Sequence record: NC_024124.2
Origin: Escherichia phage vB_EcoM_JS09
DNA: 64,000 nt
Direction: 5' to 3' (one strand)
Shown here: piece by piece, positions 59,415 through 64,000 of the stretch
Numbering within the stretch: the stretch's first letter is position 1
Layout: the number at the start of each line of letters is the position of its first letter
Notes under the pieces: model-generated
Told to the model about the DNA's origin: nothing
The model's database searches: none
What the model saw: only the letters and a program-made list of their open reading frames with translations
Position numbers and translations under genes: made by a program

Positions 59415-59502
59415 AATATCTCCTTAGTTACCTATTATTTATTACGCTTTATAAAATTAATGTTAGAATTAACTCTCTTATACTGAATTGAAAGGAAAAA
59501 TA

Positions 59503-60024
59503 ATGGCACACTTTAACGAATGTTCACAACTTATTTCTGGTGTTGATAAAGCAGAAGAAGCTTATTTTAATGCTCTGATTCACGAAGATAAAGACCCACT
59601 TCAGGTAATGCTTGATATGCAGAAATCTTTACAGGTTCGTTTGGCAAATGACAAGCCTGAACATAACAAACATCCTGATGAATTGGCCACTGCAGGCGAC
59701 GTTGTTGATTGGCTGCGTAATCAGAAAGATTATATTGATGATGAATTCCGTGAACTGCTGACTTCACTTGGTGGTATGAGCAATGGTGAAAAAGCCGCCA
59801 GCAGTGTATGGAAGCCGTGGAAAGCACAACATGCTGAATATCGTAATCGTCGTATCGATGAACTGTCTCCTGAAGACCAGCTTGAAATTAAATTTGAGAT
59901 GATTGATATTCTGCACTTCGTTCTGAACATGTTCCAAGGTCTGGGTCTTTCTGCTGAAGAAATCTTTAAACTTTACTACTTGAAAAACCAACACAACTTT
60001 GAACGCCAGGATAATGGTTACTGA
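59503..60024 (+). CDS. 56: dCTP pyrophosphatase gp56 (MazG-like)
   Basis: MAHFNECSQLISGVDKAEEAYFNALIHEDKDPLQVMLDMQ... near-identical to T4 gp56 as recalled; start trimmed to 59503. Confidence 0.95.
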   Translation: MAHFNECSQLISGVDKAEEAYFNALIHEDKDPLQVMLDMQKSLQVRLANDKPEHNKHPDELATAGDVVDWLRNQKDYIDDEFRELLTSLGGMSNGEKAASSVWKPWKAQHAEYRNRRIDELSPEDQLEIKFEMIDILHFVLNMFQGLGLSAEEIFKLYYLKNQHNFERQDNGY

Positions 60025-60069: not shown

Positions 60070-60306
60070 ATGGGTGGTTACGTTAATATCAAAACCTTTA
60101 CGCATCCTGCAGGTGAAGGCAAAGAAGTTAAAGGTATGGAAGTTTCTGTACCGTTTGAGATTTATTCAAACGAACATCGGATTGCAGATTCTCATTACCA
60201 AATCTTTCCATCAGAAAAGGCAGCTTATTCTGATGTCGTTTCTGATGCAGCAACTTGGAAAACTAAGAACGCAGCAATGTTTACCCCTACACCAGTAAGT
60301 GGTTAA
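60070..60306 (+). CDS. soc: small outer capsid protein Soc
   Basis: GYVNIKTF...HYQIFPSEKAAYS resembles T4 Soc as recalled; AAAGGAG upstream. Confidence 0.85.
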   Translation: MGGYVNIKTFTHPAGEGKEVKGMEVSVPFEIYSNEHRIADSHYQIFPSEKAAYSDVVSDAATWKTKNAAMFTPTPVSG

Positions 60307-60315
60307 ATAATTTAA

Positions 60316-60343
60316 GGAATCCTTCGGGATTCCTTTTTTTTTT
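60316..60343 (+). terminator. intrinsic terminator with TTCG tetraloop
   Basis: GGAATCC-TTCG-GGATTCC followed by a 10-T run. Confidence 0.8.
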
Positions 60344-60410
60344 GTTTCTACAGTTTACAACCACTAAAAACTGTGTTAAGATATTATTACTTACTCAAGA
60401 GGAGAACAAT

Positions 60411-60638
60411 ATGTTAAATCGTTGGATTAAACCTAATAACACATTAGGTGCTTTGATTGCTCAAGAAGTTTCGTTGAAATATGGTCTTGGATATTATGAC
60501 GACGTAGTCGTACACTCATTCATGATGGATGGTGAAGACGTCAAATTTAATGCCGAAATCCGTTGGGATGATGGTGGTGTTCGTTTTGTTCGAGGAACAA
60601 TTAATGCTTACGATGCTGAAGAAGTTGTTTGCTGTTAA
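60411..60638 (+). CDS. hypothetical protein (75 aa)
   Basis: ORF track trimmed to ATG at 60411 after GAGGAGAA. Confidence 0.5.
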   Translation: MLNRWIKPNNTLGALIAQEVSLKYGLGYYDDVVVHSFMMDGEDVKFNAEIRWDDGGVRFVRGTINAYDAEEVVCC

Positions 60639-60840: not shown

Positions 60841-61016
60841 ACAAGATAGTTAAATGGTTTAAAAGCTGGGACGATGGTGTCGGTCCAGAAGATTGGCTGG
60901 ATGTTCTTGAAGAGAATATGGCTAAAGAATTCCAGAAACATGAAGAAAAGCTCGTCGAAGATGAAGGCGAACGTATTGTAAAACTTTATATGGGTGAACC
61001 ATCGAGGAAATTATAA
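60837..61016 (+). CDS. hypothetical acidic protein (59 aa)
   Basis: ORF track trimmed to ATG at 60837 (ATGA overlap). Confidence 0.45.
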   Translation: MNKIVKWFKSWDDGVGPEDWLDVLEENMAKEFQKHEEKLVEDEGERIVKLYMGEPSRKL

Positions 61017-61480
61017 TGGATGCTATGCTATTTAAAATGTATTTGCTTGAAGCCAAGTCGTTTAAACATATACCAGTAGAAGATAAGACTCCACTAGAAA
61101 TAGCTATTCTAATTAACAAAAGTCTAAATAATCCGCAATATATCGTAGAAGAATTCTGCAAATTGCAGATTCCTAAAGGTTACAAAATTCGTGTAGAGCG
61201 AGTTGGAGCTATTACTCGTTCTAAAAATTCTCCGTTTAGTCTTGAAGAAGGCATAAAGGACTTAGGTTATGAATCTACGGAAAATGCAGTTTATGTGAAT
61301 CCTGAAAAGCGTTTAGACTTGTTTGAAAAGCGAGACCATAAGTATTTTGCCAAAAAATACTTTATTACATCATTAGCAGATTTAGTCCATTTGCAACGAG
61401 CTATTTGGAAATTTTTTAAGACAAAAGGTGTAGCGCTAGAAACATTCTCTGAACCTGCTAGTTTTTATCTAGGTGAATAA
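61016..61480 (+). CDS. hypothetical protein (154 aa)
   Basis: ORF track; GAGGAAA upstream. Confidence 0.55.
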   Translation: MDAMLFKMYLLEAKSFKHIPVEDKTPLEIAILINKSLNNPQYIVEEFCKLQIPKGYKIRVERVGAITRSKNSPFSLEEGIKDLGYESTENAVYVNPEKRLDLFEKRDHKYFAKKYFITSLADLVHLQRAIWKFFKTKGVALETFSEPASFYLGE

Positions 61481-61481
61481 T

Positions 61482-61661
61482 ATGGACCTTATGAGTATGT
61501 TTGACGAGCCTGAAGTTGAGGCTCCTAAAGTGCATCGTAGTGAACTTATTGATGAACTAGATAGTATTATACAACGACACGGCTTTAGTTTACCTGTTGA
61601 AGCCCTGAAAGACCTTGCATCTTATTATGACGACCCTCCACCATGGAGTCCTTGGAAATGA
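61482..61661 (+). CDS. hypothetical acidic protein (59 aa)
   Basis: ORF track frame (61473 is a GTG) trimmed to ATG at 61482. Confidence 0.45.
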   Translation: MDLMSMFDEPEVEAPKVHRSELIDELDSIIQRHGFSLPVEALKDLASYYDDPPPWSPWK

Positions 61662-61822
61662 AAGAGAAATTGAAAGAGAAATTCTTACTAGAAATCAAGG
61701 AAAAAGACTTTGAGACATGGTATCGAATGGTGAAAGGGCTGACATTGCTTTTTAAAGCATCGTTATTCATGTTAGAACAACCTGGTCCTGATGGGCCTTT
61801 AGTAGGAAAGCTTAAAAAGTAG
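61658..61822 (+). CDS. hypothetical protein (54 aa)
   Basis: Not in ORF track; ATGA overlap; ends at the next promoter. Confidence 0.4.
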   Translation: MKEKLKEKFLLEIKEKDFETWYRMVKGLTLLFKASLFMLEQPGPDGPLVGKLKK

Positions 61823-61877
61823 TTTACATTCCCTCCTCTCGTGTTATGATAGGCTTATCTTTAAATGGAGGTCTATC

Positions 61878-62459
61878 ATGACATGTCAATCTGAACTTCA
61901 AGAACGCGAATACCTAACAAATCTGATTGATAGCAAATTCACCCGCCAAGAACAAAACATTCTCTGGGCCTGCACCGATTCTAAGGAAGACCCGGATTTC
62001 CACTATGAATTAGACCATCTTGTTCGTAAGCATATGACTTCTACAGTGCCAGTAGAACTCTACCGTGGTGTAACTCCAGAAGAAGTAGAACGTCTTTCCC
62101 TTCTTTCTGTGGGATGCCATTGGTCTCCTGGACGAGTAACATCGTTCACAACTGATTTCAGTACAGCTCGTCAATTCTCCGGGAGATGGGAATATCAGAC
62201 GTACACTATTCTTAGTCTCAGGAATGCTCCATTCATTTTTGATTACTACCAAAACATGGTTAACATTGTACTTGCCGGAAAGAACCCTAAGCATGTTATG
62301 GAAGAAACGCGTGTTGACGTCCTAGATATGATTGAATCTGAACAAGAATACATGGTCTCAGGTATCTCTAGATTTGAGATTGCGGAAATTGAAGAGTTAG
62401 AGTATGACCCTTTGTCTCGAGTATACAAAATCATTCACTTAAAGATGTTGAATTTTTAG
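61878..62459 (+). CDS. ModA/ModB-family ADP-ribosyltransferase-like protein (193 aa)
   Basis: R-S-E-type triad candidates: VELYRGV, SFTTDFSTARQF, ESEQEYMVSG; paralog of the next gene. Confidence 0.6.
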   Translation: MTCQSELQEREYLTNLIDSKFTRQEQNILWACTDSKEDPDFHYELDHLVRKHMTSTVPVELYRGVTPEEVERLSLLSVGCHWSPGRVTSFTTDFSTARQFSGRWEYQTYTILSLRNAPFIFDYYQNMVNIVLAGKNPKHVMEETRVDVLDMIESEQEYMVSGISRFEIAEIEELEYDPLSRVYKIIHLKMLNF

Positions 62460-62516
62460 TGTACAAACTCTACCTACGATGATACTATACTTTTATCAAC
62501 CACAGGAGAAACCTAA

Positions 62517-63125
62517 ATGTTTATGCCGTATAACGAGTGTGAAATTGAAGAAATGGTTCGTCGTGCTCAAAACCCCGAATATCAAGATGTATTGCAGTAC
62601 GAAATTGATAGTCAATTCAGCGACATTGAACAAAGTGTACTGTGGCAGTGTATGGAAAACAAGCCAGACTGTATTCAACAGGAGTTAAGTTCAATCGTTC
62701 GTAGAAATTGGACGTCTTCTGTTCCTGAGACAATGTATCGTGGAATCTCTAAGAAAACTATGGCCACACTCGATGATAAAGGTATTGGTAGTATTATTAA
62801 ATTTGACAGAGTAATGAGCTTCAGCCCAGTGTTCGGTGTAGCACGTAACTTTGCTTCGTATAATTTTTACGGAACATTTAATATGTTCTGCATCAAAGAT
62901 GCACCATTTGCTTTCAACTTCCGTGAACATATGCTTAATATGATTCTGGCTGCACCATCTTGTGAGTTCAATGGAGCTTTCCCTGAAGCGACAAGACGGT
63001 CTAATGCTAGACTTATATCTGACGAATGTGAATTTATGCTCCCTATAGGGACTACACTGCATGTAGATTCTATTATTCAAGATGGACGTTATACAATCTG
63101 GAATCTGTCTATTGTCAGTTACTGA
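62517..63125 (+). CDS. ModA/ModB-family ADP-ribosyltransferase-like protein (202 aa)
   Basis: R-S-E-type triad candidates: TMYRGISK, SFSPVFGVARNF, DECEFMLPIG; GGAGAA upstream. Confidence 0.6.
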   Translation: MFMPYNECEIEEMVRRAQNPEYQDVLQYEIDSQFSDIEQSVLWQCMENKPDCIQQELSSIVRRNWTSSVPETMYRGISKKTMATLDDKGIGSIIKFDRVMSFSPVFGVARNFASYNFYGTFNMFCIKDAPFAFNFREHMLNMILAAPSCEFNGAFPEATRRSNARLISDECEFMLPIGTTLHVDSIIQDGRYTIWNLSIVSY

Positions 63126-63278
63126 CTGAATTGGAATAACCGGATGGAACTCAGAACCATTATAACACATAAAAAATTAAAGCATTTTATGAAAAAAGAG
63201 TGTACACTACCTGAGGGCATGATATTATAAGCTTATCAGCTAAATGACCTAACGTCCGTAAGACAGAGGAAAATATTA

Positions 63279-64000
63279 TGTTGTCAAATAATAAAATTAA
63301 CAAAATCAATCGTCGTCTTGACCACACCAGAGCTTCTGCGAAGAGACGCTCTAAGGATTTTAACTTAGACTTTAATTACCTTAAAAACATTCTTGATCAA
63401 AAGGTCTGCGCTTACTCAGGTGAATCTTTCAATAACTCTGTTGAAGGTGAGAAATTATCCTTAGAACGTTTTAATAACGATATCGGCTACATTAAAGGTA
63501 ATGTTATCCCGGTTAAGAAAAAATATAACACGGCTCGTTCTGATTTAACATTAGAAGAACTTATTGAGAAACGTGATGCCATTGCAAGACGTATCGCTAA
63601 TCCTTCTGCCCGTAAAGTAGAGAAACTTAATCTCGACGAGAAGAAATGGGCCCAAATTAAAAAGGTTTATGGTACTATTTTAAAAATCCGAGCAAAACGT
63701 GAAAATCGTGTTAAGCATATGGCAAACATGATGAAAAATCAACCTTTATCTAACGAATCTAAACTTAGAATTGTTGCTTTGAAAGCACGCATTAATGGCT
63801 CACATCAAGCAGAAGGCCATGAACTTACTAAACTCAACGTTCTTCTTAAAGGCTCTGACTGGAAAACTAAAACTAAATTAACTGACGCTGAATCGCTTTT
63901 CGATACATATGATAAAGTTATCCAAGGTCTGCAACGTTTTGAAAAGATTGGTTTCATTGGTAAATTAAAATTGAAACGTGGCTTACCACTTAGCGCATCA
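63279..64000 (+). CDS. hypothetical basic protein, 3' end beyond the window; weak HNH-like motif
   Basis: ORF open to the window end; AGAGGAAAA upstream; CAYSG ... LSLERFNNDIGYIKGNVIPV faintly resembles phage HNH endonuclease cores. Confidence 0.5.

Follow-up and report, generated by a model that had tools for sequence, protein, structure and literature searches.

The two adjacent plus-strand genes at positions 61878..62459 and 62517..63125 of the window (the whole 64,000-nucleotide stretch of DNA analyzed here) are modB and modA of a T4-type coliphage, a Mosigvirus (Tevenvirinae) similar to RB69; both have been annotated before, and in this respect the finding is an ordinary one. We put the probability that the two genes encode active arginine ADP-ribosyltransferases of the ModA/ModB family at about 90%. 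This family of enzymes has been studied in phage T4 for decades. The upstream gene (hereafter g1, the putative modB ortholog) starts with ATG and encodes 193 aa, and the downstream gene (g2, in the modA slot), likewise starting with ATG, encodes 202 aa; each product is a predicted arginine-specific mono-ADP-ribosyltransferase. A preliminary description had reported two adjacent genes of these lengths, and their coordinates and strand agree exactly with the list of open reading frames, which leaves a spacer of 57 nt between them. Since the two proteins share 33% identity over 147 aa (BLASTP, E = 3e-27), they are paralogs; a family HMM search of the whole 64-kb window found no third member. Direct reading of the plus strand shows a Shine-Dalgarno-like GGAGG (61867..61871) 6 nt 5' of the g1 ATG and a Shine-Dalgarno-like AGGAG (62504..62508) 8 nt 5' of the g2 ATG at 62517. 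In the RB69 annotation, modA starts at the second ATG, i.e. at window position 62523, which yields a protein of 200 aa; the spacing from the ribosome-binding site (8 nt vs. 14 nt) slightly favours 62517 as the start.

Over 3 kb around the pair, the window shares 99.7% identity with Escherichia phage vB_EcoM-pEK20, and this stretch has counterparts in 151 phage records, essentially all of them Mosigvirus, at at least 90% identity over at least 80% of its length. At the amino acid level, g1 is 98% identical to RB69 ModB (NP_861709), and g2 is 95% identical to RB69 ModA (NP_861708). The RB69 pair has the same lengths, order and neighbours (modA.2-like ORFs upstream, srd downstream) and differs by a few substitutions and perhaps by the start of g2, which may lie two codons upstream of that of RB69; for practical purposes, the two phages carry the same genes. 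Both genes are labelled RNA polymerase ADP-ribosylases in RefSeq, in the HX01 record as well as in the RB69 record, and the latter names them modB and modA; the pair is present in more than 130 near-identical phage records, many of which carry the label ModA/ModB ADP-ribosylase. The number of phage records with relatives detected by tblastn exceeds 1,050, and almost all of them come from T4-like phages of enterobacteria. There are two peculiarities of database labelling. The representative of the 90%-identity cluster that includes g2 is named 'hypothetical protein [Escherichia coli]' in NCBI and is located on a 168.6-kb contig, which is probably a phage genome deposited as part of a bacterial assembly. 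The 62-aa ModA.2-like ORF at 61473-61661 is called 'molybdenum ABC transporter, periplasmic molybdenum-binding protein' in many GenBank records (e.g. HX01 and pEK20), which looks like a spread annotation error in which the name of the bacterial ModA was confused with that of the phage gene.

Alignment with T4 ModA and ModB, which the preliminary description had proposed as a check, showed that both proteins are homologous to the T4 enzymes. In BLASTP comparisons, g1 is 38% identical to T4 ModB (92 bits, E = 5e-28) and 27% identical to T4 ModA (44 bits, E = 2e-10), and g2 is 31% identical to T4 ModB (104 bits, E = 8e-33) and 30% identical to T4 ModA (68 bits, E = 4e-19). Both proteins match PHROG 832, 'RNA polymerase ADP-ribosylase' (E = 2e-38 and 2e-37), and all 49 homologs in a large protein collection carry a precomputed PF26816 tag. 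The Pfam-A search gave no real match (only DUF6597, E = 0.15, well below the cut-off; PF26816 is missing from the copy searched), and the NCBIfam search gave none for either protein; because these copies apparently do not include this family, the blanks are not evidence against membership. Family assignment rests on PHROGs, the PF26816 tag, the comparison with T4 and RB69, and the predicted fold. Among PDB chains, the only matches in a single-sequence search were to nucleophosmin (E = 0.018) and to trigger factor (E = 2.6); we attribute both to chance and see no connection with the fold comparisons below. A profile search against PDB returned only the ADP-ribosyltransferase XopAI, weakly (E = 0.24), with the ExE loop of the family placed on the 'EQE' ARTT loop of XopAI; this correspondence of loops is consistent with the other evidence and, taken alone, not significant.

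The catalytic residues are present in both proteins. In g1, the motifs are Y62-R63-G64, S89-F-T-T-D-F94 and E155-Q-E157 (plus-strand codons at 62064-62066 for R63, 62142-62144 for S89, 62340-62342 for E155 and 62346-62348 for E157), and in g2, they are Y74-R75-G76, S101-F-S-P-V-F106 and E170-C-E172 (plus-strand codons at 62739-62741 for R75, 62817-62819 for S101, 63024-63026 for E170 and 63030-63032 for E172). The residues R63, G64, S89, E155 and E157 of g1 and R75, G76, S101, E170 and E172 of g2 do not vary when the two proteins are aligned with T4 ModA and ModB (four sequences), nor across a 40-sequence family alignment; the resemblance is not due to chance. Thus, the arginine in the YRG context, the serine of the SF(T/S)xxF segment and the ExE segment, all of which had been pointed out previously, are indeed there, and because the R-S-ExE columns align invariantly with those of the T4 enzymes, an alignable catalytic triad exists. 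T4 ModA and ModB are both described as having the arginine-specific R-S-EXE motif, and a T4 ModB R73A/G74A double mutant loses both ADP-ribosylation and RNAylation (PMC10468400); R73-G74 of T4 ModB is aligned with R63-G64 of g1.

The AlphaFold2 models built from the 40-sequence alignment are confident for both proteins (pLDDT 90.7 and pTM 0.85 for g1; pLDDT 95.2 and pTM 0.88 for g2). In Foldseek searches, the g2 model matched 93 PDB chains at E <= 1e-3, and among predicted viral structures, it matched ModA/ModB-type proteins of T4-like phages with TM scores of 0.73-0.86, including a full-length match to a Tequatrovirus ModA model (TM 0.86/0.87). The features of the R-S-E (cholera-toxin-like, ARTC) fold class were found, namely, Arg on strand 1, Ser-x-Ser/Thr on strand 2 and (Q/E)xE in the ARTT loop. 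Tre1, C3, VIP2/iota, Vis, Certhrax, HopU1, ExoS and vertebrate ART2.2 show only 10-19% sequence identity to the phage proteins. Unlike the bacterial R-S-E toxins, the phage proteins have an N-terminal helical region of their own and are not secreted; by analogy, they would target transcription and translation from within the infected cell. The identification of the pair as R-S-E-type ADP-ribosyltransferases, originally suggested by the motifs, is thus backed by homology to T4, PHROG 832, the motif, the fold models, synteny and identity with RB69.

Comparisons among Mosigvirus genomes gave dN/dS values of 0.06-0.08 (g1) and 0.04-0.20 (g2), which indicate purifying selection on both genes. A natural loss of g1 was nevertheless found: Mosigvirus PNJ-6 has an in-frame internal deletion of most of the gene (positions 2313-2501 of the PNJ-6 sequence correspond to window positions ~61920-62430), with the junction located in a short ACAAA(A)TC repeat, and the remnant consists of the promoter, the start and stop codons, the first ~14 codons and the last ~10 codons. 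This deletion indicates that g1 is dispensable in some settings. By megablast, g2 DNA is present at at least 90% identity in 152 phage records, and the interior of g1 is present in 138 records, in 133 of them at at least 90% identity; judging by such counts, ~14-19 of the 152 Mosigvirus genomes may lack g1 or have it replaced, with PNJ-6 as the verified case. Megablast counts were used for this estimate, given that the number of places per record in tblastn is an unreliable proxy for copy number (one place and two genes in each of SF and LF82-9). SF and LF82-9 were considered as additional cases of g1 loss and rejected, as both carry both genes. The deletion in PNJ-6 (g1 is deleted in at least one Mosigvirus) and the ~14-19 of 152 records with no megablast match to the g1 interior would fit a scenario in which one of the two genes is a decaying gene or encodes a catalytically dead paralog (a pseudoenzyme). 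We consider this extremely unlikely: the R-S-ExE residues are all intact in g1 and in g2, dN/dS is low for both, both models are confident and complete, and neither gene lacks a ribosome-binding site or a promoter motif. The pseudogene and pseudoenzyme readings were rejected given the intact motifs and the low dN/dS.

The gene order in T4 is 56, segF, soc, mrh.2, mrh.1, mrh, srh, modA.4, modA.3, modA.2, modB, modA, srd, dda.1, dda. In the window, all on the plus strand, the pair is preceded by homologs of gp56 (59488-60024, 72% identity to T4), Soc (60070-60306, 57%), Mrh.2 (60411-60638, 54%), Mrh (61016-61480, 32%) and ModA.2 (61473-61661, 62 aa, 36%) and by a weak match to ModA.4 (61643-61822), and is followed by an srd homolog (63278..64000, 69% identity to T4 Srd) that runs past the window end. 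Because the flanking gene order is as in T4, g1 occupies the position of modB and g2 that of modA; the placement of the pair in the T4-like modB/modA position downstream of soc, as initially proposed, therefore holds, with the gp56-to-ModA.2/ModA.4 homologs upstream and Srd downstream. The order modB, then modA is also annotated in RB69 and in Gaprivervirus VR26, and the arrangement in HX01 is the same. Directly 3' of soc, there is a hairpin (60314-60335) that consists of a perfect 9-bp stem, AAGGAATCC-TTCG-GGATTCCTT, followed by a T run; it has a terminator-like score on both strands, and an early-type promoter motif comes after it, at 60353. The identity of the two ADP-ribosyltransferases to the T4 proteins is 27-38%, compared to 72% for gp56, 57% for Soc and 69% for Srd, and the host of both phages is E. 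coli. Because the ADP-ribosyltransferases have diverged from T4 far more than the flanking genes, drift in target specificity is possible.

The early promoters of T4-like phages are of a distinctive type, with GTTTAC at -36 to -31 (PMC1524935), and for this reason, the early-specific motif was counted instead of the sigma-70 consensus. The motif, defined as GT[GT]TAC-N16-18-TAnnnT, occurs at 27 sites on the plus strand and 3 sites on the minus strand of the whole window, against 1.9 +/- 1.4 in Markov shuffles, which served as the background; the plus-strand positions include 1497, 4286, 5174, 60353, 61822, 62459 and 63200. The site before g1 (61822..61850, plus strand) reads GTTTAC-N17-TATGAT, with TG before the -10 element and an A-rich stretch upstream, and is also kept in PNJ-6. 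The site before g2 (62459..62488, plus strand) reads GTGTAC-N18-TACTAT, with TGn before the -10 element; its GTGTAC -35-like element begins on the final base of the g1 stop codon, TAG (62457-62464 for the codon and the element together), and the PNJ-6 variant of this site has a better -10 element, TAATAT. A third site (63200..63228, plus strand), before srd, was detected both in the generic scan and in the early-motif count and marks the downstream boundary of the pair. The generic sigma-70 scan showed no enrichment (12 sites found vs. 11.8 expected); it flagged the g1 site as strong (TTTACA-16-TATGAT at 61823-61850; 10 of 12 consensus positions, with TG) and the srd site, and found none before g2, where the site falls below the 9-of-12 cut-off. 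The claim in the preliminary description that each gene has a promoter-like cassette of its own thus stands when the T4-early-type motif is used, although the generic scan misses the cassette of g2. Each gene probably has its own early promoter and is probably transcribed within the first minutes after infection, by host RNA polymerase in its unmodified form. The 27 plus-strand motifs, compared to 3 on the minus strand and 1.9 in shuffles, make the window look like a long early-transcribed block in which many small genes are individually promoted. The arrangement differs from that in T4, where modB and modA overlap by 4 nt (ATGA) and there is no intergenic promoter, whereas g1 and g2 are 57 nt apart with a promoter motif; because of this overlap, T4 modA has no room for a separate promoter.

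The correspondence of each paralog to one of the two T4 enzymes is less clear-cut than family membership. T4 ModB (NP_049636, 207 aa), the product of an early gene, belongs to the same family as g1, shares the upstream slot and the R-S-ExE motif, and differs in that g1 is 14 aa shorter and is devoid of part of the insert before the ExE loop. T4 ModA (NP_049635, 200 aa) shares with g2 the family, the downstream slot next to srd, the similar length and the R-S-ExE motif, whereas ExE has Cys as its central residue in g2 and Gln in T4 ModA. Isoelectric point and charge proved uninformative for telling ModB from ModA, as all four proteins (g1, g2 and the T4 pair) are acidic. In a bootstrapped neighbor-joining tree of 53 family members, g2 belongs to a clade with the downstream genes of Mosigvirus, Dhakavirus and Gaprivervirus (85% bootstrap); this clade groups with T4 ModA in 41% of the bootstraps and with the T4 ModB clade in 2%, and g1 falls into a large group with single-copy genes of Klebsiella, Serratia, Salmonella and Enterobacter phages. 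Synteny, the tree and the preference of T4 ModA for g2 favour, although not strongly, the assignment of g1 as ModB and g2 as ModA. One-to-one orthology is not secure because g2 scores higher against ModB than against ModA (104 vs. 68 bits) and the bootstrap value is only 41%.

Conceivably, therefore, the two proteins belong to the ModA/ModB family and yet are not one-to-one orthologs of the T4 enzymes, owing to independent duplications or to functional divergence after the split of the lineages; the division of labour could then be unlike that in T4, with both proteins ModB-like or with the roles swapped. Both g1 and g2 score better against T4 ModB than against T4 ModA, the bootstrap support for g2 with T4 ModA is low, T4 ModA is on a long branch, the single-copy homologs from Klebsiella, Serratia, Salmonella and Enterobacter phages cluster on the g1/ModB side, and the 4-nt overlap of the T4 genes is replaced here by the gap with its own promoter motif, all of which is compatible with such a history. 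However, the flanking order is identical in T4, RB69 and VR26, and annotators with T4 expertise chose modB, then modA; the highest identity of g1 is to T4 ModB (38%); T4 ModA scores higher against g2 than against g1 (68 vs. 44 bits); g2 joins the T4 ModB clade in only 2% of the bootstraps; and the g2 model matches the Tequatrovirus ModA model over its full length. The better score of g2 against T4 ModB is explained by the long branch of T4 ModA. On this evidence, we consider the absence of one-to-one orthology unlikely and tentatively retain g1 as ModB and g2 as ModA.

The site of modification by T4 ModA is Arg265 in both alpha subunits of RNA polymerase, and T4 ModB acts on rS1, EF-Tu and trigger factor (PMC2988021, PMC3014915); T4 ModB can also join NAD-capped RNAs to rS1 and rL2, a reaction known as RNAylation, and the ExE catalytic loop is a signature of arginine-specific protein ADP-ribosyltransferases (PMC10468400). 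The targets put forward in the preliminary description, RNA polymerase or translation factors, thus correspond to those of the T4 enzymes. In the literature searched, no experimental or biochemical work on RB69-type or other Mosigvirus ModA/ModB proteins was found. In the preferred reading, both products are small enzymes with one domain (~23 kDa) that belong to the R-S-ExE class of mono-ADP-ribosyltransferases. NAD+ would be held by the Arg of the YRG strand together with the Ser of the S-F-T/S strand; of the two Glu residues in the ExE loop, the second would catalyse the cleavage of the bond between nicotinamide and ribose, and the first would steer ADP-ribose onto the target arginine, so that ADP-ribose from NAD would be put on host proteins early in infection. 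By analogy with T4, the g2 product, encoded in the ModA slot, would place ADP-ribose on Arg265 of the two RNA polymerase alpha subunits, and the g1 product, in the ModB slot, would modify the translation apparatus (ribosomal proteins S1 and L2, EF-Tu and trigger factor) and might also take NAD-capped RNA as a substrate for RNAylation. We infer catalytic activity and the timing of expression, and the assignment of each paralog to its targets is the least secure inference. That the split of targets in T4 carries over one-to-one to g1 and g2 appears to be somewhat better than an even bet.

A different role altogether can be envisaged, in which one or both of these ADP-ribosyltransferase-fold enzymes counter host defence or modify a non-protein substrate (a nucleic acid or a small molecule) instead of reprogramming RNA polymerase or ribosomes. 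Phage ADP-ribosyltransferases with other roles are known, such as the anti-CRISPR AcrIF11 (PMC12421852); g1 and g2 evolve much faster than the neighbouring genes; g1 is dispensable in PNJ-6; and T4 ModB itself takes an unconventional substrate, NAD-capped RNA (PMC10468400). However, the direct T4 homologs have experimentally mapped protein targets (PMC2988021, PMC3014915), the ExE loop is the signature of arginine-specific protein modification (PMC10468400), and the host is E. coli, as for T4, which makes such a role very unlikely. Another departure from T4, which we regard as unlikely, is that the two Mosigvirus enzymes divide their work in another way: g2, whose sequence is closer to ModB than to ModA, would perhaps not be limited to Arg265 of the alpha subunit, and the often lost g1 would be accessory, possibly RNAylating, with targets other than those of T4 ModB. 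If so, the independent promoters, where T4 has overlapping genes, would permit separate regulation of g1 and g2.

The discovery value of the pair as active ModA/ModB-family enzymes is small, since modB and modA are already annotated in RB69 and in well over 100 near-identical phage genomes. The g1 deletion in PNJ-6 provides a ready-made natural modB-minus comparison. Because the two proteins are only 27-38% identical to their T4 counterparts and both phages infect E. coli, the pair could help to map the residues that determine the choice of target, RNA polymerase alpha vs. ribosomal proteins, and the use of NAD-capped RNA.
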